DNA of 58,417 bases, filler included, from Sphacelaria rigidula (lineage: Eukaryota), in the NCBI GenBank assembly GCA_964200075.2. It is 10 parts of 10 records of this genome, joined end to end, with 100 filler letters (N's around TTAATTAATTAA, not from the genome) between each part and the next. Parts side by side here need not be neighbours in the genome. Positions count along the whole stretch, not along the records: positions 23,409 to 29,160 come from CAXNAA020024732.1; 9 more parts are not named here. The stretch is one strand, 5' to 3'. The notes beneath the pieces were generated by a model that saw only the letters and a list, made by a program, of their open reading frames with translations, had not been told where the DNA came from and did no database searches. The stretch's first letter is position 1. The number at the start of each line of letters is the position of its first letter. Of this stretch, positions 4,068-52,666 are shown piece after piece. Both the position numbers and the translations under genes were made by a program.

Positions 4068-4139
<72 letters not shown>

Positions 4140-5752: not shown

Positions 5753-5852
5753 NNNNNNNNNNNNNNNNNNNNNNNNNNNNNNNNNNNNNNNNNNNNTTAA
5801 TTAATTAANNNNNNNNNNNNNNNNNNNNNNNNNNNNNNNNNNNNNNNNNNNN
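5753..5852. other. Artificial contig-joining spacer (N44-TTAATTAATTAA-N44); first of nine
   Basis: Identical 100-bp spacers with stops in all six frames at 5753-5852, 11605-11704, 17457-17556, 23309-23408, 29161-29260, 35013-35112, 40865-40964, 46716-46815 and 52567-52666. Intervening segments are exactly 5752 or 5751 bp. Confidence 0.98.
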
Positions 5853-11190: not shown

Positions 11191-12183
11191 TTCGGGATAA
11201 ATGCCACATCATGGAAGCAGATGGCCCAAGATGCTCCCAAGGTGGTGCCGAGTCGTGGAATAAGGGGACAAGAAGTGCACGACAGATTTGACCAACGCGC
11301 CCCCCGCAGATGAACGTTTTGCTGTGCTACGCCACCAGAGGTCCTACGTGTGTCGGAGGAAGGTCTCCGATACGTGGCGAGTAGCCACCACGTAGTATGC
11401 TCGCTAATGCGTTCGCCGTGTTCCTGGAATCTTTGCTGCTTCTTCTCTGTGGGTACATTGGGATGTTGTTGCTGTTATGGCTCCCGCTTGGTATCCGATT
11501 TAGTTTCTCACTTTTTTTTTTCTTTCTTTTGCTTGTTGAAACTATCTTGCTTATCACCCCATCGACACAGCAGCGATTATTGGCCTTTCCATGTGTGGAA
11601 AGACNNNNNNNNNNNNNNNNNNNNNNNNNNNNNNNNNNNNNNNNNNNNTTAATTAATTAANNNNNNNNNNNNNNNNNNNNNNNNNNNNNNNNNNNNNNNN
11701 NNNNTATGGTGCAGTCGTCAACAGGGCTGGGGAGGGATGGGGCAGGATGGGCAGGGGGGGAGGGGGGGGGGGGGGGGGGGTACTTTTTTGTTTCTTGCCG
11801 TAGTCATGTGTGTGATCATTGACCACGCAGCCCATTCGACACGGAGCATAAGTCGGGGGGGGGATACACTGTGTAAGCGAAGGTTGTAACGCCGTGTTGC
11901 CTCTTTCATCTACCCTGTGAATTAGTAAGGTCTAAAACTAAGTTTTTTTTCATAAGGACAAAAAAAAGTGCTTCCGAACATGTGTTCATAGTTTTCGCCT
12001 TGATTGAAGTAAACTTCGAAGGATTTGAGAGGGGAGGCAGGAAGTAGAGAGTAGGGGGGGGGGGGGGGGGGGGGGGGGGGACAAACTTTTGGCTGGAGGG
12101 GAAGGGGGGGGTGGGGGGGAGGGGGGTGGATCTCGGGGNNNNNNNNNNTTTTCTTTGTTTTGTTTGTATTGAGTGAAGGTGGA

Positions 12184-16902: not shown

Positions 16903-17989
16903 CAATTTTCCCTCGCTTTACAGTTTGATTCACGGTGATCACCCTAAAAATATTAATGTGCAAAACTTCACGCGGTTTTTTAGGAGTTGGACCCTGGATT
17001 TTCGCACAAATGTGCTCTGGGTCATTACAAAATTTTCGACGGACCAGTGTTTTTTTTTACTTTTCGACTTTTTGAAGGGTTTTCGGGGGGTTCCAGGGGT
17101 TCTCGATGAACGCTAGATTTCGTGGGACCCCCGAGAACCGGTGAAGAATCAAGAAGCGAAGAAAAAATTCTCTCAAAGGTTTTGCAATAACCCATACCCC
17201 GTGTGTGCAAAGTTTCCGAGTCTGACTCCACAAGTCGTGGTGAAGTTTTGTGCATTTGTGCGATGAAGTGAGCTTGAAGCGTGCAAACTCCTCACTATTT
17301 GACGTGAGTAATGAAACAACCTTTTCGGGTATTCTCAACGTCAATGCGAGAGAAAGTGGAAAATATTTTTTAGTTTCGCAACCAAAAAATGTACACATAA
17401 CAGCCGATTCTCGAAAATGGGGTTGAAAAAAAAATGAGGTTCAACTCAAAAGCCGTNNNNNNNNNNNNNNNNNNNNNNNNNNNNNNNNNNNNNNNNNNNN
17501 TTAATTAATTAANNNNNNNNNNNNNNNNNNNNNNNNNNNNNNNNNNNNNNNNNNNNTGTTTTCGGTCTCGTTTCGGTGCGGCTTGTTAATTTCGTCAATG
17601 TTGAAAAGGGGTGGGCTCCTCCCCCCCCCCCCCCCCCAGGTTTTGCCGTGTGTACGTATGTACACTTGCTGCGTTCCTACCCATAACGTACCCGCGCTGA
17701 TACGGGCACGGTACAGCAGGTAACACTGGAGGAGTTCGGAATCCGTTTCATGTGACACATTTCTACTACAAGACTACTCGTTCCATATCGTACCCACCGG
17801 TTGTTCGAACACGGACGGAAATCTGTTGGATTTGTTTTCGAAACAGGGTTTGCTGGAGTCCATCTATTGCCCTCTGAGCGAACCATTCCAAGCCTTGCGT
17901 CCCTTTGAATCAGATCTGAAATTCACTTCAAACTCAGACGCTTTTTCCATGTCTCTACATAAGAGGCTCGTTGTGATTGTAGCGGCGCT

Positions 17990-22760: not shown

Positions 22761-23408
22761 ACGAATCTTGATTTACTCCGGAAAATATTCGTTATTTCAG
22801 ACACAAGAAAATTCATGGCCACTTTTGTCCGATACTAATATCTCGCTCCCCCGCTCTGCTCCCGCTCTTTACATCTGCCCTCCTCCCAACCTCCATATTC
22901 TCTTGAATCTACATGCGTATGTGTGACAGATACACACCTTCAGCTTTGATGCACCTTCAAGCGGCGGACAGGCGTAAGATGGGCCCCTGTTCCGCTGATG
23001 GTTGACAACACCTCATGTTTTCTCCGTACGCCGTACATGTACCGGACCAGCACCGTACATTTTGTATCTTGTAGCCGAGAAGTGCCTCCTAAACAATCAT
23101 TCCTTCACCATGACGGTTGCCTCCTGCTTTAACTACATCATGCGAAATAGACACACCGTTTCGTGCTATTTACCCAGGAGCAATGGCCGCACTAGCGTGG
23201 TCTTCGTATTCTTTCGGTTTTTGTTAGCTCCCTGTCTACAGCTTATAACAGCCAATCATCTATGTTGAGGATGGTGCTTTTGATTGAGGATGAGAACCCG
23301 GAAGATTANNNNNNNNNNNNNNNNNNNNNNNNNNNNNNNNNNNNNNNNNNNNTTAATTAATTAANNNNNNNNNNNNNNNNNNNNNNNNNNNNNNNNNNNN
23401 NNNNNNNN

Positions 23409-23500
23409 GACCCCGGCTGATGCGCCCACGTATCCCGAAAAGGGTAGACTGGCGCCCAGAATAAATGGGACGACAACTAAAACGCCCTGAATGGAAGGAA
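23409..23500 (+). mobile_element. 3' end of SINE family B
   Basis: GACCCCGGCTGATGCGCCCAC...ACTGGCGCCCAGAATAAATG..ACGACAAC matches 50231-50303. Confidence 0.6.
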
Positions 23501-23699
23501 CAAAAAACCAACCTGACCGCCTTTCTTTCGTTCATTATGCCCCAGCGAGGTTCTACACAAAATTTCAATAAATGAGTAGCAAAGCCTTGTTCACCGAGCT
23601 GACAGTTTACCCATCGGCGAACCGTGTGCCCGTTGAAACAGTGAGCGCTCACTGGTTCACTGGTTCAATGGGTCAGCTGTTCACTTCCTGAACAAAAGA

Positions 23700-23872
23700 T
23701 ATGCTGTGTGGTCCGTCCAGGCATGGCACAGCAGTGATCTCCGGGGCCTCTTGCCCCTCGCAAGCCTCGCTCTGTTCACATGTCCAACTCGTTCTTTCCA
23801 CAATAGGTCATGCCGGGACTCGAACCGGATACCTTGTGTTCCGGAAGCGGACAACCTACCCATTAAGGCAGG
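23700..23872 (-). mobile_element. tRNA-derived SINE, family C
   Basis: Minus strand GCCTTAATGGGTAGG (A-box-like) ... GGTTCGAGTCCCGG (B box), no complete cloverleaf. Flanked by about 45-50 bp direct repeats at 23644-23696 and 23874-23917. Confidence 0.55.
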
Positions 23873-24979
23873 GAGCGCTCACTGGTTAAATCGGTAAACT
23901 GTTCGCTTCCTGAACAACCTGGGTCGGTGAGTGACCCGCACGATACCGTTTCGAATTTCTGCCGGTCCGGCTTTCAAATGGCCCATTCGCATATTAATAT
24001 TCAGAGTTGTACCACGGAATTGAATATGGACAATGTATCTGAAGTCATGAAAAAACGTTTGGGTGAACCTAAATAAGTTATTCTTTCATGAAGTGAGGCC
24101 GCTTCTCATAACATACAAGGATGAAAATCTGAAAAAGGGCCTTTTGGGGTGGCTTCTACGTGGGTTTACGCCCTAAAAGAGACCAAGGCGGAGTTCGACA
24201 CCTTGGAATGACTTGTTCTACTCGTCGGGGCGGTTCCACGACATCTTCGCGTTCTCCTGTCGCCGCAGCTTGATTTTGGCCAAAGAAGCTTTTTGGTCCA
24301 AGAACGGTCAGGAATGGTCAGACCTAGGACGTGGTCATCTCTGGGCAAAAATGCCCGTTCAGCCGAATAAAACCTGGTGCCACCGGAGAACGCGAACATG
24401 CCCTCGAACCACCTCGATGAATAGGGCAGGTCATTCGAAAGCGTCAAAGTACACCTAACTCTCATTTGGGACGTGAAACGACGGAAAAGCTCCAAAAAGG
24501 TGCTTTCCAGGTTATATTTTTGTTTGGTATAAGGAACAGCCTGAAGGCAACGACGAGTTTTTAGGTCTTGGTGGAATACCGTCTGATTATGGGAAACAAA
24601 AATCTTGGTAATGACGCACACGTTTTTTTGTGATGCCCTATGCATTGTCCATACCAAAATTTAGGGTCCAACTCAAAATGATGCGGTGCGAAATGGCATG
24701 CAAACTACGAATCCCCTTCTAGGTTGGCCCAGCTCGTAGCTCTGAAGTCCCTCTGATCCCACGACTACAGCACCCAATGGCGAGCTCCGAAAAATTATTT
24801 GTTCACAACTCCTTGCTCATGCCGAAGGAGTCGATTGTCGCGTAATCCGCAGGGGGCACACCCAGGGTCGTTTTGCCGAATCTCGAGCCCAAATGGTCGG
24901 AGGCGGCGGAGGTATACACCGATTGTCTGCCTGTTCCAGGAATCGCGTTTGTAGTGGGAACAACGCAAAACTTCCACAC

Positions 24980-25680
24980 GTAAAACAGCTCATGAGCTAG
25001 CTCATCTGCCGGCGGTAGCTCACTTGTAGTCAAACATGTACATGTGAGCTACGTCCGACAGCTCAATGCAAGGTGAACGTGAGTTGATGAGCTACGAGTT
25101 GGCAGCTCACCTAGGACAAACATGCGTAGCTCATGCAGCTCATACGTCACCCAGGGCGAATATGAGCTGATGAGCAACAGGTTGGTAGCTCACGCAGGAC
25201 AAACATGCCTGGCTCATGCAGCTCTCAGAGCTCACCCAGGGCGAATATGAGCTGATGAGCTACGGGCTTATAGCTCACCTATTATAAATATGCGTAGCTC
25301 ATACAGATCCCGTAGCTCACTCAGAGCGAATATGAGCTGAGGAGCTACGGGTTGATAGCTCATCCAGGGTAAACATGCATTGCTCATGCATCTCTCATAG
25401 CTTATACAGGGCAAAATGCGTAGCTCATGCAGCTCTCGTGGCTGACACAGGACGAATATGAACTGATGAGCTACGGGTTGGTATAGCTCACCGATCACAA
25501 ACGTGCGTAGCTCATGCAGCTCTCATGGCTCACCCAGGACGAATAGGAGCTGATGACCTACGTGTTGGTAGCTCACGTACGGTAAACATGCATAGCTCAT
25601 ACAGCTCTCATAGCTCACTAGGGAGCTACGCTCAAAAAGAGCCAGCTCGAGCCATAGGGAGCTGATCTGTCCGACGTGTG
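24980..25680. repeat. AGCT-rich about 85-bp tandem array (about 6-7 units)
   Basis: Units GAGCTGATGAGCTACGGGTTGGTAGCTCAC..GGACAAACATGCGTAGCTCATGCAGCTCTCA..GCTCACCCAGGGCGAATAT start at 25081, 25164, 25249, 25334, about 25460 and about 25547. Confidence 0.9.
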
Positions 25681-26810
25681 CAAATTTCTGACTGAATTTC
25701 CCACGAGCCGACTTAACACGAATGACTTAGTATCAGTGACGAGAACAATCCTGCGTGTCCAACACTCTCAGCTTCGGCTAGTCCCAACCCTGCTCAAAGT
25801 ATTTTATTCAAGTGTCGGCTGCCAAAAAATCCGTTTCTGTGGGGATTTACTCGAGCTGTCCTATTTCAGCACTCATATTGCAGTTCGAAACTCGGCTCTA
25901 GTGTGGGTGATCTCTAACTTCACGACACTCACAATCTTTATATTCCCACAGGTGCAAGGCTTATGAGGGGACACGGGTGACACCCATCCTCACCCGTAAA
26001 TGGGCTGCGCGAGATCGTGCAATTACCCTGTACGTAACCGTCTCAAGTCAATATTCCCAAGCAGTTCGAAGCCTCGTGCTACCTGATGGGGATGTTGTAC
26101 CTTCCAGCTGCGTATTCGAGCCGCTAGGTACAAGTATCCGATCCTGTCTATCGAGAGGAAAACAATGGCTACACGAGCGGCGTATTGGCTGCGCTTCTCC
26201 TCATCCCACTCTCAACCCATCCCGTACCTCGGGACGAGCTCGTAATGTCGAGGGATCAACCCATGTTTTCCCTGATGCATGCCCAACATTTTGGTATTGC
26301 AGGTGAGATCAGCACTCCCACACCTTGTCGGCTGTCAACCATCCCCGGATACTCATGTCCTCACGCTTTTAAAGACGGAAGTCAGAGATATATAAGGAAA
26401 CGTATCCACCAGGATTCCAAGCCCTTTCGCCCTGATTGATTCAGTATGAAACACTTACATCACTGGGACGCGGCGGTGTTGCACATGGCTACAAATGCAC
26501 CTTTCCGCGCGGTGACGAGCCGAAAGCAGTGACAACCAGAAGAAAGGTGCCCATAGGAAATTCACCATGCTTCGGAAATCATTGCTGGAGACGATCCGGC
26601 ACCACACATATATCGAAGAAAACGACTCAGCGGCCTCCGCCTCCCCTGCCACCATCCGAACACAGCTGCATTACTTGACCTGAAAACAAATAAACTGATA
26701 TACACTACAAATATTCGAGCGAAATCACGACTCGCGCACCGCAGACATGGTAAAACACTCTCTGTCGAATATCAGCCGGGAAAAAGGCGTGCACGGGTCC
26801 TCCATTTAAT

Positions 26811-29160
26811 CTATCTCTTTCGCAGGCGGGATGAGGTCGCGGGCACGTGACGAGACGGGGAGAACATGTTCAGTTCAAACTTCACGTCGATTCTGTCGTC
26901 TTCAGGTATTGCATCATCCCCGGTTGCCACGTCAAGTACCGGCAGCACCTGGGCCGTCCGGCGAAGCCGCTTCGTGTTTCTTCCACCGGTGATACTACTG
27001 CTTCTGGGTGTTTTGCTGGGGCCGCTCATGCTGTCGCAACTGCTGGATCGCGCAGTGAATCGTTTGCTAGGTCGGATTCCCCTGAAAACTCGCGTAGGCG
27101 CAACAGTCGTTTCCATTTTGATTTTGATGCGCATCTCTGACCCCCCTAGAGTCATCCTATCTGCTGCCACCGCGCCAGCGGGCTGTCTCGAAGGGCTAGG
27201 CGATTTGGTCGTGAAATTTTCACCCCGTCGCCCAACACGGATGACACGCGAGCTGGCACGAGACTTAGCGTAATGATCATCACTCATGTTCGGACCGCCA
27301 TTCGGTGGATAGCCAGGTTTTCCACCTCTATCATCGATACCGACACCGGTCTCTTCCACGACCAAGCCATCATTCGCTGAGCTTTTTTCTCGGGAATGTC
27401 CTGTGGGATCAGACCCTCTGATCAAACCATATGAAGCACGATGGTAGATTTTTCCGTCCCCGCGAACCAGGTTCAAATGATGCAGCGAGGCGCATTCATC
27501 GCCGTTGATGAAAGCTATCCCTGCGCTGGCGTGTCTTGCGCAGAACTCCGCTTCCCTGGTGCCGGCTGCACCGAAGGATGCTCGTGCAGAGCAGCCCTCC
27601 TCACCGCATCGCTTGCTTACCACATCGAACGTGCCCGCTCGGGCGTGTGCGGCGCAGAACTCCGCCTTTCTGCTACCGGCTGCACCGAACGATGGGTACG
27701 TGGAGCAGCCCTCCTCGCTGCACGGCTTACTTTTCACATCGATCATGCTCGCTAGGGCATGTGCGGCGCAGAACTCCGCCTTCCTGCCACCTGATGCACC
27801 GAACGATGCGTATGTGGAGCAGCCCTTCTCGCTGCACCGCTTCTTCCTCACATCGATCATGCCCGCTCGAGCGTGTGCAGCGCAGAACTCCGTTTTCCTG
27901 CTACCGGCTGCACCGAACGATGCTCTTGCAGAGCAGCCCTCCTTGCCGCACCACTCGATTTTCACATTGACCATGCCCGCTCGGGCGTGTGCGGCGCAGA
28001 ACTCCGTTTTCCTGCTACCGGCTGCACCGAACGATGGGTGCGTGGAGCAGCCCTCCTCGCTGCACCGCTTGTGTCTCACATCGACCATGCCCGCTGGGGC
28101 GTGTGCGACGCAGAACATCACCTTCCTGGTACCGGCTGCACCGAAGTACGCTCTTGCAGAGCAGCCCTCCTTGCCGCACCGCTCGCTTTTCACATTGACC
28201 ATGCCCGCTGGGGCGTGTGCGGCGCAGAACTCTGCCTTCCTGCTACTGACTGCACCGAACGATGGAAATGTGGAGCAGCCCTCCTCGCTGCACCGCTTGC
28301 TTACCACATTGACCATACCCGCTGGGGCGTGTGCGGCGCAGAACACAGCCTTCTTGCTACCGGCTGCACCGAACGATGGAAATGTGGAGCAGCCCTCCTC
28401 GCCGCACCGCTTGCTCGTCATATTAACCATGCCCGCTCGGGCGTGTGCGGCGCAGAACTCTGCCTTCCTGCTACCGGCTGCACCGAACGATGAGTATGTC
28501 GAGCAGCCCTCCTCGCTGCACGGCTTCTTCATCACATCGACCATGCCCGCTCGGGCATGTGCGGCGCAGAACTCCGTTTTCCTGCTACCGGCTGCACCGA
28601 ACGATGGGTGCGTGGAGCAGCCCTCCTCGCTGCACCGCTTGTGTGTCACTTTGACCATGCCCGCTCGGGCGTGTGCGGCGCAGAACTCTGCCTTCCTGCT
28701 ACTGGCTGCACCGAACGATGGGTATGTGGAGCAGCCCTCCTCGCTGCACCGCTTGCGTACCACATTGACCATGCCCGCTCGGGCGTGTGCGGCGCAGAAC
28801 TCTGCCTTCCTGCTACCGGCTGCACCGAACGATGGGTATGTCGAGCAGCCCTCCTCGCTGCACGGCTTCTTCATCACATCGACCATGCCCGCTCGGGCAT
28901 GTGCGGCGCAGAACTCCGCCTTCCTGCTACCGATCGCACCGAACGATGCGTGTGTGGAGCAGCCCTTCTCGCTACACCGCTTGTTTTTCACATCGATCAT
29001 GCCCGCTCGAGCGTGTGCAGCGCAGAACTTCACCTTCCTGCTACCGGCTGCACCGAACGACGCTCTTGCAGAGCAGCCCTCCTTGCCGCACCACTCGATT
29101 TTCACATTGACCATGCCCGCTCGGGCGTGTGCGGCGCAGAACTCCGTTTTCCTGCTACCG
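26811..29160 (-). CDS. EsV-1-7 cysteine-rich repeat (putative zinc finger) protein, 5'-truncated at contig end
   Basis: Uninterrupted frame from the contig edge to TAG at 26811. Fourteen full and one partial 38-aa repeat, MV(N/D)VxxKRC-SEEG-C-STYPSFGAAGSRKAEF-C-AA-H-ARAG, i.e. C-X4-C-X16-C-X2-H, the motif of EsV-1-7 domain proteins (Ectocarpus virus EsV-1 ORF7; brown-algal IMMEDIATE UPRIGHT family). Followed by a 235-aa S/G/R-rich tail. Confidence 0.92.
27519..29160 (-). repeat. 114-bp coding tandem array (14.4 units)
   Basis: Exact 114-bp period with no indels; 27901-28020 and 29041-29160 differ at one base. Confidence 0.97.
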
Positions 29161-29896
29161 NNNNNNNNNNNNNNNNNNNNNNNNNNNNNNNNNNNNNNNN
29201 NNNNTTAATTAATTAANNNNNNNNNNNNNNNNNNNNNNNNNNNNNNNNNNNNNNNNNNNNCCGAGGAACATCGAACTGGTTGACGGCGGCCGACACTTTT
29301 AGCTGTTTTTGGGGGGGGCTATCGTAGAAAGTGTCGGCCATGTATCCCTTCACCTTTGCCAAAGCGTGTGCCTTCCTCGCCAAGCCGCAAAGCATGATGG
29401 GGCGAGACTTACTAACCACACAGGCGAGCATATATAGTGACCCGCCTATTGTCCGCACATGCGGTCCTGTGAGGTCGGGGTGGATGATGCCGAGGACCGT
29501 GGGTGACCGAGTACTTGAATGTGGGATCGCGGGGCGTCGCCCTTTTGACTCCACACACCCTGCGCATGGCGCCAGCTGCCCTGTGAGAGTAATACCCCAT
29601 TGGGCGGCGGTCGCTCGGAGAGTGGTCTCGTGAACATGGTAGAGGGAAACGTGAAAGTAGTTGATGTCCAACGTTTGTTGGGGTTTACCGACAGTGGATG
29701 GTCGACGGCCGGGGGCTATAACTGCAAGCGCCAGATCCAAAATCTCCTCCTCACTCAATTCCTGAAGGCTTAGAACTCGAAGGAAAAACGCTGGGGGACT
29801 ACACGTAGCAACCTCATCCTCCTCGGACAGCAGTAGGTCCGGTAAGTGCAAACCTGGAACAGCAGTCAATCCGGTGGGAAACCTATTGGGTGAGTC

Positions 29897-30212
29897 GACA
29901 GTACCACGCGAAGACGCCGTCGCAGTAGATTGCGCTACAGTATTCGAGGTCACACCGACAGTAGTACACGAAGACACAGCATTCGGGTTTCTTTTTACAG
30001 TAGCACGCGGAGACACCGTAGTCGGGGGAGCACTGACAGTAGCACGCGAAGGCACAGTAGTCGGGGGAGTATTGACAGTAGCACGCGAAGACTGTAGTCG
30101 GGGGGGGCACTGACAGTATCACGCGAAGACACCGTAGTCGGGGGGGGCACTGACAGTAGCACGCGAAGGCATAGAGGTCGGGGGAGCACTGACAGTAGCA
30201 CGCGAAGACACA
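29897..30212. repeat. About 39-bp tandem repeat inside copia pol (SSRATVSAPPTTV-like)
   Basis: GACAGTAGCACGCGAAGACACCGTAGTCGGGGGAGCACT-like units, about 8 copies, some with frame-shifting indels. Confidence 0.85.
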
Positions 30213-32879
30213 GCATGTGTAGAATGTTCCCCCATGGCGGAGACTGCAATCGAAGCATCATCCGATGTGGGCGGCAAACGTTTTGCTAAATGAGAAGAAG
30301 AACGCGAATTACGGTCGAATCGTAGTTGCCCGTTAAACAACGATATGCCTGCTCTGGTCACAGTAATGTCCTGTTTGTACTGTGCCTGATATAAAGAGAA
30401 GAATTTTGAACTTAATACCATCAAGCATATACACGTTAGAAAGCTTGACACAAAAACTAGTGCGATCAGCCCCGTCAGTGTGTCCCATGTAAAATCTGAG
30501 GTTGAGGCCACCGACCGCTCTTACTGGGAGTACAGTACCATCATCTCCAAAAATCACATTCTCGTCACCATGAGGGGGAACTCGCACATCAAACGGCCCC
30601 TCCATATTTTCAGTAGTATGGTGCGATGCCCCGGCGTCCGGTATCCAATCTTCCATCATCATCTCTACCCGACACCTCCCCACGATGCATCATAGCATAT
30701 CCCTGCAAATCAACATTACCAAGCCGAAACCGAGACTCGCCTTTTGACATGGAAAATGCCATATACGCTCGTGGGTGCTCCGAGGTGTACGTATCGGGAG
30801 GCGGAGCAGACGTAGCTGGGGGGGCTGCCGGCTGCCAGCTGCTGATGTTGTTGCTGTTCGTCGTGAGGTGGAGCTGCGGTTTGGTATTGTCGTTGATGAT
30901 GGCTGTTGTCCGGGTTAGGATAGCAGTAAGAGTGATGTTGCTGGCCCGGCGGGTGGTACTGTTGGGGATGTTGCTGTTGGTAGTGGTCTGTTGGTGGGGG
31001 ATGTTGATGTTGTTGGGTTGGTTGCTGTGGGTAATTGTCTGTTGTTGGGGAAGATTGGTAAGTGTCTTGTGGTGCGGGGGTTTGCAGTAGGCTGGTGGTG
31101 CTGCTGATATTGGGGCAGTGTTCGATGTGACGATGGCTCATGACGCTGCACGTGATGGGCATACCCAGCACCGTTGAAACCGTCCCTGCCCGGTAGGGTG
31201 AAGTCTTCGTTAGTATTCGGAGGCTCACACCACTGTACAAGGTTTGCGCACGAGCGAGACTCCTTCGAATGTCGGGAGTCGTTGAAGTGGTGAGGATTGT
31301 TGGTGTGATGGAAGTTGTTTGTGCAATGAGGGTTGTTTGTGTGATGAGGGTTGATGGTGTGATGGGAGTTGTTGGTGTGATGGGAGTTGTTGGTCTGAGT
31401 ATGGGTGTTGGAGTAATGGTTACGTAGGGGGTGGTTTTCCCCGTGATGCGGAGCACGCTGCTCGGAGTTAGGATATCGATTGCCCTGTCGGCGATCAAAA
31501 TGACTCCGCCCGTCGCCTCGTGTGTGGTAATAAACACCTCGATCATGGCATATGTTGCAATTGCCAACATTGCATGATGAGGATTAGGGGGCTGGATTGG
31601 GGTGGTTGTTGTGGGGCTCATGTGGAGATAAAAAATGTGATCGGGAATTAGACCTTGGCGACGCTTCATGGTCAGGGTGCTGGTGTGAGGTAGAACTCTC
31701 ACTGCGGTTAGAACCACACTCCCGGCAGTGGTGGTTTCGTCTGCCCCCCCCTGCCTCCGCGTCGCCTTCCTGATACGTCACTGTGAGATACATCTCGAGC
31801 TATGGCAGATATAGCATGGTTATTCAGAGGGTCTACCCTACTCCTTGACAGGTCCAATTCAGCATGAGCAGTTTTCACCGTTCGGTGTAGGGTCTCTGTA
31901 TCAATTTCTGACATGGCGAGGAGAATTCTTCTCTCAATCTCGTACTCTGAAGACAGCCTATGTGCATAATGCCTGTTGGCATCAAACTCCGAAATTACGT
32001 GATCGAACTGATGCCTTTTGTGGCGAATTAAATTCGCCCTGTTCAGAAACACGAGAGGGTTCTCGGCCGGGGACATCTGTAGGCATGTCCACTCTTGCTC
32101 CCGACGGGCCTTTTCTGTAGTGGGGGAAACAGTGTAGTACTGGACGGAGTAGTCCCACGACTCACTAGGTGACCCAAGAATCGCAAAGTTCTCATCCATT
32201 CCGGGAGCTATGATTTTTCCGAGTAATATTTCGTGGGTCCTCTGAGCTTTCTCTACTGCCCTGTATCCGTGCTGCGCTATCAACTCGTCCTCTGACTCAT
32301 GAAAAATGCGAATGGGGTCCTGAACAAACAGAGCATCGTAACATTTCTCGGCACGAAAATATCCGATCATTTGCACTTGAAACACACGAAACTTCGACTC
32401 CAAACTTACTCCTGCTTTCACAAAACCGTCCCATGGGTGAATACTCGTATTGTTACGTACTTTGACAAAGTTCGGTTGGGCACGTTGTCCTCCCGTGAAG
32501 ATATCGTTTCGGAACTCCTGCAAAAGACGTGGGTTGTTCTGCTGGTCGCGGTTTGCTCGACTCATCGTGGGATTACCTTGTGCGCCTGTGCCCAAATGTA
32601 TGCTTCTATCACTTTCGTAATCTACTATAGCATCGCGTTTTGCGGCCTCAATAAGCCCTACCTGTTTTCCTTCCATCTTCCCTTGTTTTTCTTCCATGAT
32701 TCGCAGTTTTTTTGTCTGCTGTACCTCCATAAGCCGAAGCTTTTCCGTGAACTCTTCCGTACTATACTCCTTCATGTTAGCCATTGATCAACTTTGATTA
32801 TCTATTACTGTTGCTTGTTGTCAAATTGATTATCTAAAAACATGTTGATTTCTCACTTATTGGCTCCCTTCCTCGGTGA

Positions 32880-34576: not shown

Positions 34577-35168
34577 AGGAGTAGCCTTGGGACATTTTGG
34601 TATAGTAAATATTATATTTTCACGAGAACGCTCATACCTCTACAAAAACAAAAATGAAGGCCCATTTTTGTTTTTCGGTATGCCTTAGTGATTCTTCATG
34701 ACACGTTTCACATCTCAGCTCTAAAATTGAGCTGAAAAACTGAAATGAGGTCGGAGAGCTCTGTCCATTTCTCCCTTGAACTCCACTGAAAAATGAACAA
34801 AATGAAAGAAACTCCGACAAAAACGGAAAACGCTGAGTTTTTTTTCATTATGCACTACGAGCTGGTGTAATGATGAGCAAGCGGCAGTATAATGCAGGAG
34901 CACAGTGTGCAGCCCAAGGCACAAGCTTGGCAGACAAGTATACAACCGTCGGCTGTAATTACTTGTAAATACCGTATACCGCTATACGTCAGATAAGAGG
35001 CAATAACTCACGNNNNNNNNNNNNNNNNNNNNNNNNNNNNNNNNNNNNNNNNNNNNTTAATTAATTAANNNNNNNNNNNNNNNNNNNNNNNNNNNNNNNN
35101 NNNNNNNNNNNNCGGAAACATCTGCGAACGTGCTTCTTCGTGTCGATGTGCTGCGAGCATCTATCCTC

Positions 35169-40430: not shown

Positions 40431-41884
40431 TCAATATTCCTTCCCTGGATCAATATTTCTTCATTTACTGATTGTGCGAATTCCTCGTCGGACGCTGTCC
40501 CAGTGGGAAAGAGCCCCTTGGTCCTCGTGTTATTGTACACCGAATACAGTTTGGGTAACCTTCTTTACATCATCCGTTCAGTGGCGTGATGGGTCGCTTC
40601 AGTCTCCCATCTTGGTTCACATCAAAGGACCTTGTGGCACGACGTGTACCCGACTCAAGGTTCCCGTTTCACCAAACTTGATTCCAGCAACGACGTCCTC
40701 GGCGATATTGGTTTAAATATAAGGGCAATGGCCTAGAGAAGGTATACCTTCTCGTTCTTTGCCTAAGAAAGGCACGAAAAATGGTCAGAAACGCGAAAAC
40801 AGCTCGACACGCCATTTTGACCGTTTTCGCTCCGGATGTTTCACGCACATCATTCGGGGGGGCCNNNNNNNNNNNNNNNNNNNNNNNNNNNNNNNNNNNN
40901 NNNNNNNNTTAATTAATTAANNNNNNNNNNNNNNNNNNNNNNNNNNNNNNNNNNNNNNNNNNNNCCCCCCGCGTGGGGGCCCCCTGACAGAGGCGGGGGC
41001 GGGGCCGCGGGGGTGTCCCCCGACCCGGGGAAGGGGGGGGGGGGGGGGGGGGGGGGAGGGATAACATGAAGGTTTCGGATGGTAACGATACGGCGAAAAT
41101 TCTCTAACAACATTTTTAAGATTGGATTAACTTGAGGAAGCTATGGACGTATTCCTCAGCGTTGAGAACTAAATGCGGCAAGAGAGCAAAAGCTCTGCTT
41201 TCAGGGCTGAGGGCAGACTGGACCTCAAAACGCTTCGAGCATATGGCAACCAATTCTCGATCCTGCAGGACAAAAGCACCCCAGTATGTACAAGGGAGCC
41301 AGGATGTCAACGAAAAATTAGAGAATCACCTCTTTCGTAAAATAGGCGTGTACGAGTAACCATCGCAGCGATTGAAAAACAAGAGGAAAACTCCAAGCCC
41401 TGAGGCTGTGCATGTTACAAGTGGTTGTTATTACGGAGTTTACAGCCTTGACAAGTTCAAGCCTTCTTCCATCGCAGCTGCGAGAGTTGACAGAGTCCAC
41501 AACTACATGCGAGTTACGTTTCGCGCAGATGGCTACGAGCTGGGCCAGCCAAAAAACCCGCATTATTCCCTTCGACACATGACAACTTTTTCAACTTCCC
41601 GAATCTGCCCGATGTAACTGCGTCGCTGCAAACTGCAGGCCAACCTGCTGATGACATGCTCTACCGGTCAACAATCAAAAGTTGAAAATTAAAATGCAAT
41701 ACTACTTCATAAAAAGTGATGTCAACTACAGAACCAGGTTCTGCAAAACAGGGGGGGGGGGGGGGATCCGTCGGGATTTAAACTTTTAACCTTCCACCCT
41801 GACAGACGCCTCCTGCNNNNNNNNNNAAAAGAAATGGGGCAACACCCAGACCGGGGGGGCGGGAGGGGGGGGGGGGGGGGGGGG

Positions 41885-46715: not shown

Positions 46716-47749
46716 NNNNNNNNNNNNNNNNNNNNNNNNNNNNNNNNNNNNNNNNNNNNTTAATTAATTAANNNNNNNNNNNNNNNNNNNNNNNNNNNNN
46801 NNNNNNNNNNNNNNNACGTGCGGTCTGCAGCGTACTAGATCTTACAGTATTGAACGTGCCGAGTGTACGCAGCATGCGTTTGGACATCGCACAATGGCTG
46901 CCGCCGCAAATGCCCCTGACTACCGTAGAGCAATTGCTCTGCGATGGCGGTCGCCTCACCGTCGAAATACTTGTCTACATCTACGTGCATGGGGTACTCG
47001 TGGCCGCCGTTCGCGTGTTGCGCCATGACGTTTGATGCCAGATGGAGGTGTGGAGCTAGTACGACGCTCAGGCAGTGCACCGAAGTTGCTCAAACACCTG
47101 AGTGTTGGCTATACAATCTATTGTTGATTAGGAATGATCATACGGTAGAGGTAGACGCCTGGTAGACATATTGTCTGTCTACCCTCATAACTTGTTACTC
47201 TCCGAAAATGTTCGGTAGTAATGTTTTGACCATTCCGACTGTTGACCAATAGATCAACCTCCTGCAGTCACCAGGGTACAGTCAGTACCTCGTGTCTTGG
47301 AGCTTCGCAGGTGACCACAGGAGTGCGGAGTCTAGGTCTCACATCTCCTCTCCAAGTGAAAGAAAAAATACACTGCCCACGTCTAGAGGCCGGGACGCAC
47401 CGCAATCGATACAAACAGTACAGTGCAGCAAATCTACTCGAGTCGTCAAAAAATGGTTCGATTTACGTGGGCGATTTCTGTGCTAATTTTTACCGGGATA
47501 CGAGGCCCGGCAAATTGAAAGATTACGGATTTGCTGCACCCTCGGGAGGATTTCAATCACGCCTACCCGGTCTCGCGTTCACCCGGGTTCACTTTTTTTG
47601 GCCGGACTAGTGATTTTCTCAAAACATAAAAGTGTTGAATTTCTTCGCGATTCGTACGTGATATTTGGGACCGCTCAAAAGGTTTTCGAGGGTTGCGTGA
47701 GAAATCGCTAATCCGGCCAATATCCGATCTATCTGGGGTTATGGATCAG

Positions 47750-50824: not shown

Positions 50825-52666
50825 TTAGGCCGCTTCTTATAACAGACGCGAAGATACCCTGGAACCGCCTCAACTAGTAGAGCAAGTCATTCCAAGGTGT
50901 CAAACGCCGCCTAGCTCTCTTTTGGGGCGCAAAACGACGTGAAAGCTCCCAAAAGACACTTTTCCAGGTTTTTATTTTTGTCTAGGATAATAAGTAAAAG
51001 CCTAGACAAGAGACGCCCTAACATCTTCTCTGGTCGATGCGAATGTTCGGGCTTTCTTCAGCGCCCTTGAGGCAGTAAAGGACAAGAGCGAAATCTGATT
51101 TCAGGTCAAGGGTAGGCCTGTCTGTTGTTTATCCGTTCTTGTCTTCACTCTACCCTGGTATTGAAAGAATAAAAAAACTCGCCTCCACGCATGGACGTTT
51201 TTCGCGTGAGCAGAAGTGCTTGAAGGCTACGTATTTGCGTGGAGAAAAGCGAACGGTGGTGCTGCCATGTAGCTTTGACTATGTAGCAACGTAGTCTCAC
51301 GCCGCTATCATGGCGAACGAGGTGAAGAATAATGTGGCAAAATGTCTTTTTTCTTTTTGGAGCTTCTGCGTCGTTTGACCCGTAAAAGAGAGCTAGCCGG
51401 ATGTTGATACTGTACCTTGGAATCCCTTCCTGTCCTCGTTGAGCCTGTTCCATCAACCCTGCCTCCGAAAAAATGGGCAGTCTCTGAGAAATATCCAAGC
51501 TTGGTCAAGAAAAAGACTGTGGCCACCGGATAAACGCACAGGTGTGCTCTAGTTATCTCAAGGAGTACAGCAGGGCATTCCCATGTATCAAAATCCACCC
51601 AGCTTTCTTTGAGGGCGCAAAGCAACGCAGAAGCTCCAAAAAAATAGTTTTACACGACTTTATTCCTGTTCGCCGTAAAAAGCGACCGCAACAGTCAGTT
51701 GTCCTTTCCTTTATCGCAAAAGATGATGTGGACAGAGGTCCTATGCCAGCGCTGATCGCTCGGCGGGCTGAACGCTATGTTCCAGAGGGTGCGCAGCGCG
51801 CAGGGATGATTCAAGCAAAGAGTTGCAACAGAGTCCTACGAATAGGCCTTTGCCCCGTAGACTCTTTTGGGCCAAAACCCAACATGTTCCCGCTCTAAGA
51901 GAGCATACGGAGCGAAGGTCTACCTATGAACGAAAGAGTTACGCCGCATTTTTTGTCGGTTTCGGCCGATACTTCATCCAAAATATTCCCGGTACGCGTT
52001 TTTTTTTTTTCTTGAGCATGCGTAACGTACTCCAGAACGCGGCAAGCTGTCGGGGCACGCTTGTGGCAATCTTCCTATCGTAGGCCTGTGTTCGAGTTGG
52101 ACATATATCGCCGCCGTCCTAGAGTATCCACCGTTGAAGAAGTGTCAGCTATTTCCTGGCTAGGCCGACCCCGATCGTGCAGGGAAGAGACGACGAGGAA
52201 GCACAACACCTACCCTTTACCCAAGTCCCGCAATAAACACGTACGTACACACCCATCGCTGACGCGCATTACCTCCACCGCTACGAAAGCCCTCGCTCAT
52301 GAACACACAGCAGTCTTTTGATGTTGACGGGAAACCGTTCAGCATTGGAAGAAGTGTGGCCGGGTGCGCCAGTGTTTTTCGGCGCGCGTCTGACACACTA
52401 TATATATATATATATGTATATATTTTCCTCGCACTTTGAACCCCTCCCCTTCCTCGGGATGAATCCGTGGTCTCAAGGGATCAACCCATCTTTCCCCCGG
52501 TACGCGCCTTACATTTTGGTCCCGCGGAATGCGTCAGCACTCCCGCACCGCGTCAACTCACGTCACNNNNNNNNNNNNNNNNNNNNNNNNNNNNNNNNNN
52601 NNNNNNNNNNTTAATTAATTAANNNNNNNNNNNNNNNNNNNNNNNNNNNNNNNNNNNNNNNNNNNN

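Follow-up and report, generated by a model that had tools for sequence, protein, structure and literature searches.

Tandem C2H2 zinc-finger arrays of the KRAB-ZFP and PRDM9 type carry one zinc per unit, held by ligands spaced C-x2-4-C-x12-H-x3-5-H, and combine a constant scaffold with a small number of residues that differ from unit to unit and adjoin the ligands, and with duplication and turnover of the units. The TALE unit is a metal-free helical hairpin of two helices and 33-35 amino acids (aa). The EsV-1-7 family, which is among the largest gene families of brown algae and includes a developmental regulator, is built on a motif that has been termed a possible novel zinc finger class; the available part of the same study gives 95-335 members per brown-algal genome, a catalogue of 2018 proteins, and IMMEDIATE UPRIGHT (IMM) as the one family member with a phenotype (10.1101/2024.02.19.579948). 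None of the Ectocarpus EsV-1-7 genes carries another Pfam domain according to the accessible portion of 10.64898/2026.04.27.720984, and a ligand is not reported in the accessible portions of these two sources or of PMC12993054.

Here we analyse a 58,417-base stretch of the Sphacelaria rigidula genome assembly GCA_964200075.2 (hereafter the window), which holds an EsV-1-7 array of at least 14 complete units at 27519..29159 on the minus strand. With a probability of roughly 0.5 we read this array, from its sequence and that of its relatives, as a modular array that binds specific DNA sequences and belongs to a nuclear protein.

The array and its hot spots

The array belongs to an open frame of 782 codons at 26811-29159 (minus strand), which comprises a cut unit, 14 complete units, a tail and a stop codon and forms the 3' portion of a gene of the brown-algal EsV-1-7 family. 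Translation and register extraction reproduced exactly what had been described in a sequence-only reading of the same DNA, namely 14 complete 38-aa units without indels and the invariant columns C9, G13, C14, S15, F20, G21, A22, F30, C31, H34, A35, and A37, and assigned them to the minus strand. The period is exactly 114 nt, Tandem Repeats Finder counted 14.2 copies of a 114-nt unit, and the proposed family membership was borne out by the Pfam model PF19114 (EsV_1_7_cys), which matched 15 stretches with an E-value of 1.1e-208 and 675.1 bits against a gathering cut-off of 25, well outside the range of chance. The pattern C-x4-C-x16-C-x2-H (C9, C14, C31, H34) is present in 14/14 complete units, whose mean column identity is 82%, and each unit is a putative Cys3His zinc-binding module, the zinc being predicted solely from these invariant ligands. 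The array has a net charge of +2.4 per unit. Ahead of unit 1 lies a 15-residue remnant of a further unit (columns 24-38, 29115..29159), cut at the end of the sampled piece, so that 14 units are a lower bound (at least 14.4).

The residue pairs at columns 5-6 (10 distinct pairs) and the states of column 17 are those listed in the sequence-only reading. On the minus strand and in the direction of translation they are KI and R17 in unit 1 (29001..29114), KN and H17 in unit 2 (28887..29000), MK and Y17 in unit 3 (28773..28886), VR and Y17 in unit 4 (28659..28772), TH and H17 in unit 5 (28545..28658), MK and Y17 in unit 6 (28431..28544), TS and F17 in unit 7 (28317..28430), VS and F17 in unit 8 (28203..28316), KS and R17 in unit 9 (28089..28202), RH and H17 in unit 10 (27975..28088), KI and R17 in unit 11 (27861..27974), RK and Y17 in unit 12 (27747..27860), KS and Y17 in unit 13 (27633..27746), and VS and R17 in unit 14 (27519..27632). 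Units have been duplicated recently: units 3 and 6 are 1 nt apart, units 5 and 10 are 4 nt apart, and units 1 and 11 are 5 nt apart. Unit 4 differs from unit 8 by 5 nt, with columns 6 and 17 among the differences, the unit nearest to unit 2 is unit 12 (12 nt), unit 9 shares the CGKEGCSARA subtype with units 1 and 11, and unit 14 is the most divergent (25-34 nt from the others).

Variability on this rigid scaffold is concentrated at three columns, as had been proposed. The pairwise amino acid diversity is 0.82 at column 5, 0.84 at column 6, and 0.78 at column 17, compared to an array mean of 0.27 and to 0.56-0.60 at the next most variable columns; columns 3, 8, 18, 28, and 36 are moderately variable. 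Columns 5 and 6 are located just ahead of the first Cys and column 17 shortly past the second. The same columns recur elsewhere in the family, for which we used 120 listed homologs from a search limited to proteins of 430-1369 aa. The columns with the highest within-array diversity, in descending order, were 6, 5, 17, and 3 in 17 named brown-algal arrays, 6, 17, 19, and 5 in 55 nuclease-motif (giant-virus type) arrays, and 17, 6, 19, 5, and 3 in 77 arrays with at least five units. When the 573 units of other proteins were pooled, entropy exceeded 3 bits at 17 columns and columns 5, 6, and 17 were unremarkable at this family level, while columns such as 10, 15, 22, and 25 differed between arrays and were homogeneous within an array. 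The hot spots at columns 5/6 and 17 are reproducible and independent of this locus.

The sequence-only reading had further taken columns 6 and 17 to co-vary, and had named loss of that signal after correction for repeat duplication as evidence against its proposal. This loss is what we found. The association over all 14 units (shuffle P 0.007) was gone after units 6, 10, and 11, the near-copies of units 3, 5, and 1, had been dropped (P 0.19). On a neighbour-joining tree of the units, which was constructed without codons 5, 6, and 17 and on which changes were counted by codon parsimony, there were nine changes at column 6 and five at column 17, and only one of the 26 branches had a change at both. 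At column 17, the five units with S at column 6 read F, F, R, Y, and R, and R17 travels with the CGKEGCSARA subtype. Across 569 non-identical family units the pair ranked 55 of 703 by corrected mutual information (MIp) and 43 of 630 by mean-field direct coupling analysis (mfDCA). The covariation is a by-product of unit duplication and not a code.

Whether the variable columns evolve faster than synonymous sites received a divided answer. Among the 14 units, the proportion of non-synonymous differences (pN) by the NG86 (Nei-Gojobori) method was 0.55 at codons 5, 6, and 17 compared to a synonymous proportion (pS) of 0.23 over the whole unit, and pN/pS was 0.51 at the other 35 codons. On the unit tree, with parsimony counts made at near-saturated synonymous sites, 25.5 non-synonymous changes were counted at the three codons against 10.5 expected at the synonymous rate (ratio 2.4), and the remaining codons reached 0.42 of the neutral expectation. 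This excess had a P of 3e-4 in simulations in which the three columns were pre-specified from other brown-algal arrays.

An independent giant-virus locus, L008, gives the picture of a homogenised scaffold with differences maintained at the hot spots. Its six units are 2-9 of 111 nt apart, and all their non-synonymous differences fall in seven codons (columns 5, 6, 17, 19, 21, 32, and 33), where pN is 0.283 against a pS of 0.077 (3.7x); the other 30 codons have a pN of 0 at a pS of 0.081, the numbers being small throughout this comparison. L008 (positions 2-1375) has a 37-aa period with the spacing C-x4-C-x15-C-x2-H, and a nuclease-like domain follows its array.

Comparison of viral orthologs gave no sign of positive selection. 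From 31 viral loci, obtained in four scans of viral contigs, we compared seven independent pairs with 80-93% protein identity (1398 unit-codon comparisons), for which pS was 0.36 and the overall pN/pS 0.27, and pN/pS was below 1 at all columns. At columns 3, 5, and 6 it was 0.09, 0.22, and 0.33, with within-array diversities of 0.60, 0.65, and 0.85 at the same columns, and at columns 17 and 19 it was 0.54 and 0.43. The comparison L001-L004 contained zero replacements at columns 5 and 6, with a pS of 0.45. The residues that distinguish the units are therefore kept between viral orthologs, which speaks against a mere lack of constraint and likewise against an arms race in these viruses. In another viral gene lineage (L013-L026, relatives of homolog P0111 with 57-82% identity by tblastn) 3-9 strict units precede the same nuclease-like domain, so that unit number shifts quickly within one lineage.

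For brown algae, 0 of 22 proteins reached 60% identity in a first ortholog test. The set then used consisted of 13 brown-alga-type pairs with 65-86% identity, compared as proteins only over 55 aligned unit pairs, some of which are possibly paralogous; in this set column 6 was the fastest (0.37 compared to a mean of 0.18).

Fold, fusion partners and competing readings

Units 2-6 were modelled by AlphaFold2 (AF2) with the 120 homologs, giving a mean predicted local distance difference test score (pLDDT) of 91.3 and a predicted template modelling score (pTM) of 0.60. In all units DSSP marked columns 32-34 as a helix of three residues and columns 2-3, 20-21, and 30 as strand or bridge, and in some units it gave paired marks at columns 8 and 17; the model of a viral homolog, P0083, had the same pattern. 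Since the marks at columns 2-3 are missing from the first modelled unit, columns 1-3 of a unit are predicted to be paired with columns 20-21 of the unit before it. From this pattern, columns 8 and 17 would connect both arms of the zinc knuckle and set columns 6, 8, 17, and 19 on one side of the hairpin. Searches at the sequence level against the PDB returned one chance match of nine residues for the 14-unit profile (2l9d, E 0.18) and none for P0083.

The fusion partners of the array in its relatives point to DNA. In 80 of the 120 homologs listed, mostly from giant viruses, the array precedes a C-terminal domain with an E.DE..H motif. An alignment of this domain from 77 of the 80 (P0024, P0065, and P0068 were omitted) has P336, D337, E350, D352, E353, H356, R384, and N386 as invariant positions. 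The domain was taken from the AF2 model of P0083 (pLDDT 91.5), and the top rows in Foldseek were all PD-(D/E)xK nucleases, with weak E-values from 1.3e-3. The best VIA-align match was the catalytic domain of the homing endonuclease I-Bth0305I (Z 8.4, rmsd 3.2, 93/97 residues), followed by Vsr (Z 7.9 and 6.9) and then by Can2, McrC, AbaSI, BstEII, and Hjc (Z 5-7). Clusters of look-alikes of the domain are from Nucleocytoviricota, and the viral loci come from metagenome-assembled genomes of giant viruses; in one Atlas cluster 20% of the members contain ArfGap. Two metagenome proteins, P0065 and P0068, combine an EsV-1-7 array with N-terminal helicase-associated (HA, PF03457) domains and a C-terminal nuclease motif. 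A Tc1/mariner transposase, TcMar-2_Ec32, has an EsV-1-7 domain at its N-terminus according to the available text of PMC12477816. By analogy, the nuclease and transposase fusions both put the array where a DNA-targeting module would belong. A literature search, whose reach did not extend to the founding paper of Macaisne et al. (2017), which may show a logo with variable columns, found neither the hot spots nor the nuclease fusion described, and a search of PHROGs returned families of unknown function only.

In the window protein the array is followed by a C-terminal tail of 235 aa (26814..27518, stop codon at 26811..26813, minus strand), which is rich in S, R, and G and has a net charge of +15. 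It has no match to a Pfam family and no E.DE..H motif, and the window protein is without a nuclease domain. Homologous tails are present in four S. rigidula EsV-1-7 proteins (E 1e-25 to 1e-41), and, judged by this comparison, the tail appears to be a subfamily-specific region that the window protein has in common only with these four Sphacelaria proteins, with the conserved blocks R(M/I)K.K.ETT, GRNTKRLR, and FDVA.GDD in the paralogues. The GRNTKRLR stretch looks like a nuclear localisation signal.

In the DNA-binding reading that we favour, the units would be chained into a stiff rod by the pairing of columns 1-3 with columns 20-21 of the previous unit, columns 6, 8, 17, and 19 would occupy both arms of the zinc-knuckle hairpin, and the hairpin surface would read DNA, so that each unit would add its own specificity. 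The array may have originated as the targeting module of giant-virus proteins resembling homing endonucleases of the Vsr/EDxHD type and in brown algae, where the nuclease is lacking, it may live on in an expanded family of regulators that bind DNA in the nucleus. The wider proposition is tentative, and we hold it to be possible rather than probable: that EsV-1-7 arrays constitute one more natural class of DNA-reading repeats, modular and in principle re-programmable, with columns 5/6 and 17 (in viruses also 19 and 32/33) facing a few base pairs each, which arose in viral Vsr/EDxHD homing endonucleases, lost the nuclease, and expanded in brown algae into transcription-factor-like regulators that include IMM.

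Several results weigh against these readings. The placement of the hot spots on one face is drawn from the DSSP pattern of the models, and the coevolution analyses (MIp and mfDCA on 569 units) gave no support for the contacts 8-17 and 6-19 (mfDCA ranks 249 and 375 of 630). The array model had no significant match among solved structures, the best E-value in Foldseek against the PDB being 2.0 and the best VIA-align Z among 48,161 chains being 3.1, with RING domains; neither search returned an SBP, WRKY, or GCM structure, a result that excludes none of these folds. The selection signal within the window array is borderline in that the single-site P values of 0.0027, 0.012, and 0.068 are uncorrected for 38 sites, the P of the excess rises to 0.05-0.10 if the three codons are treated as a post hoc choice of the best among 38 in simulations of complete neutrality, and the unit tree ignores gene conversion, by which the units probably exchange sequence. 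No column had a pN/pS above 1 between viral orthologs, and in the 13 brown-alga-type pairs columns 5 and 17 were near the average (0.20 and 0.24 against the mean given above). The brown-algal proteins are without the nuclease, and the matches of the Vsr-like viral domain include RNA-acting RAP proteins of mitoribosomes (9i05_Xr, Z 7.3; 9g6k, Z 6.6).

These last matches would fit a reading in which the array binds RNA in the manner of PPR, OPR, or FASTK-RAP proteins and the viral C-terminal domain acts on RNA, and FASTKD4 has been called a Vsr-like RNA regulator in the available part of PMC11879112. The best matches of the domain are DNA enzymes, however (I-Bth0305I and Vsr ahead of McrC, Hjc, and restriction enzymes), and the Tc1/mariner transposase fusion and the SBP-like ligand spacing likewise indicate DNA, so that we consider RNA binding quite improbable. 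The most credible of the alternatives, although still an unlikely one, is that the array is a scaffold for protein-protein interactions like tandem RING, B-box, or LIM domains and that the variable residues tune the choice of partner. The array model indeed has no structural neighbours other than RING domains (Z 2.0-3.1) and, weakly, tandem B-boxes (Foldseek E 3.9-6), and ArfGap occurs in the look-alike cluster mentioned above; all these structural matches are below a meaningful threshold, though, and the main fusion partner is a nuclease, a transposase fusion has been published, and the array is net basic.

The two remaining explanations concern the hot spots themselves. The variable columns could be the least constrained surface of a fast-duplicating family, with no reading of sequence or with this copy being inactive, and this would agree with the borderline post hoc test, with the correlation between within-array diversity and between-ortholog rate across columns (Spearman 0.83 for viral and 0.76 for brown-alga-type pairs), and with the depth of repeat-like stretches (about 100-300x that of the flanks), which indicates a very large family. 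Against this, columns 3, 5, and 6 are kept between viral orthologs at a pS of 0.36 despite differing between units, seven codons of L008 take all the replacements while 30 take none, the frame is open over its full length, and the tail is conserved in the Sphacelaria paralogues; we judge it a shade less credible than RNA binding. Least probable of all is the TALE-like code of the sequence-only reading, in which each unit would read one base through its coupled residues 6 and 17, driven by virus-host conflict. The hot spots are real and family-wide, near-identical scaffolds that differ at hot spots only do exist (L008), and in the family units S, N, H, and K predominate at column 6, as do R, Q, I, and K at column 17. 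The coupling was nevertheless lost without the duplicates, on the tree, and across the family; 139 distinct 5-6 pairs among 573 units do not make a small alphabet; columns 19, 32, 33, and 8 vary as well; and positive selection was not seen between viral orthologs. The earlier idea of a nucleic-acid reader gains strength from the fusions to a nuclease and a transposase and from unit identity kept between orthologs, whereas the argument from covariation fails; the units are zinc knuckles and not helical repeats of the TALE type.

Taken together, the family-wide hot spots, the conserved unit identity, and the viral nuclease fusion lead to a bench-testable hypothesis, that of a DNA reader built from modules whose specificity positions are named. 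If true, such a reader would account for the growth of the family, connect a selfish element of giant viruses with algal developmental regulation, and provide a new DNA-targeting scaffold.

Make-up of the window and surroundings of the array

The window consists of ten pieces of about 5,752 bases, which are split by nine artificial linkers of the form N44-TTAATTAATTAA-N44 that are not biological (5753-5852, 11605-11704, 17457-17556, 23309-23408, 29161-29260, 35013-35112, 40865-40964, 46716-46815, and 52567-52666). Adjoining pieces are not necessarily neighbours in the genome and features at piece ends are cut artificially. The array sits in the piece 23409-29160 and stops at 29160 because the sampled piece, and not the array, ends there. 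A scan for the Cys/His spacing pattern found no further EsV-1-7 motif in the other nine pieces; the sole other match to the pattern, near 4094 on the minus strand, is the poly-Cys translation of a simple trinucleotide repeat, a run of 17 or more Cys codons in the same frame, and is not an EsV-1-7 unit.

Nine sequencing runs from three studies contain part of the window, none of which is recorded as RNA, and depth was profiled in four of them. Short contigs in these four runs span both the coding tail and the spacer downstream of it. Stretches with at least 95% likeness to the repeats have about 100-300x the depth of the flanks in the four runs, and near-identical units are therefore very numerous in the genome. 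At 25400-25650, some 1.2 kb past the stop codon of the gene, the summed contig depth is 200-600 in three runs (X1, X4, X5) and above 30,000 in the fourth (X7), compared to 10-60 in the flanks, with many alternative joints at 25483; this segment is probably a high-copy dispersed repeat or a small transposable element.

In the next piece, a 39-nt tandem repeat (also detected with periods of 78 and 117 nt; 3.3-5.6 copies, 79-90% match) at 29953-30213 is overlapped by open frames with repetitive peptides on both strands. The open frames at 29264-30055 and 30716-31717 (both minus strand) had no match to a Pfam family, and an assignment of this region to gag/pre-integrase is not supported.

Comparison with described repeat and DNA-binding systems

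The window protein is an ordinary member of a known and functionally unexplained family. The homolog list is headed by metagenome proteins and S. rigidula proteins (45-58% local identity), with Ectocarpus, Pylaiella, and Scytosiphon next; the closest named relatives are brown-algal proteins, and no close ortholog is among the homologs listed. The array shares its motif, ligand spacing, and 38-aa period with the EsV-1-7 family including the Ectocarpus developmental regulator IMM, and the period is a family property, being observed in 373 of the roughly 489 spacings between the 606 motifs that 117 proteins contain. The array has at least 14 units, compared to at most 11 strict units among the 120 listed homologs, all of 430-1369 aa, and to five repeats in IMM according to the available part of 10.1101/2024.02.19.579948.

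The first zinc site (Zn1) of the SBP domain (PF03110), a DNA-binding domain of plants and green algae, has the spacing CX4CX16CX2H, identical to that of all 14 units (10.1101/2021.08.22.457055, available part), and, according to the accessible text of PMC10796333, consists of extended antiparallel loops and then short helices, which is like the DSSP pattern of the AF2 model of the window array. The SBP Pfam model gave a weak in-register match to the array (E 1.1e-5, 26.0 bits, below the cut-off of 27), which covered profile positions 1-37 of 75 only; a two-unit query gave an E-value of 0.059. The second SBP site (Cys2HisCys), which overlaps a bipartite nuclear localisation signal, is absent here, as each unit has only four ligand residues, and the window units, unlike SBP, are iterated in tandem.

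I-Bth0305I is the prototype of the EDxHD family and binds DNA through a region of its own, with a footprint of roughly 60 bp, as far as the available text of PMC3239194 goes. The C-terminal domain of the viral relatives keeps invariant acidic and His residues and has its best structural match in the catalytic domain of this enzyme, and by analogy the array in the viral relatives would supply DNA recognition as the separate N-terminal region of I-Bth0305I would. The viral motif is ExDExQH and not EDxHD, the nuclease activity is predicted from the models, and the likeness is confined to the viral relatives, the window protein being without such a domain.

With TALEs the array shares near-identical tandem units (33-38 aa) that differ at very few positions, a likeness that is clearest in viral L008. 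For the adjacent hypervariable pair of TALEs the picture is mixed: columns 5-6 fit it, and column 17 and the moderately variable columns differ too. The window units do not have the TALE fold, being zinc knuckles with short bridges around Cys3His and only a three-residue helix at columns 32-34, and the residue alphabet of EsV-1-7, a family without a known base code, is large (139 pairs at columns 5-6). The closest functional analogy to the window array is with the C2H2 arrays of the KRAB-ZFP and PRDM9 type, from which it differs in being Cys3His with a 16-residue spacer and in a model without the beta-beta-alpha fold; DNA binding, the property for which those arrays are the analogy, is predicted for the EsV-1-7 array.

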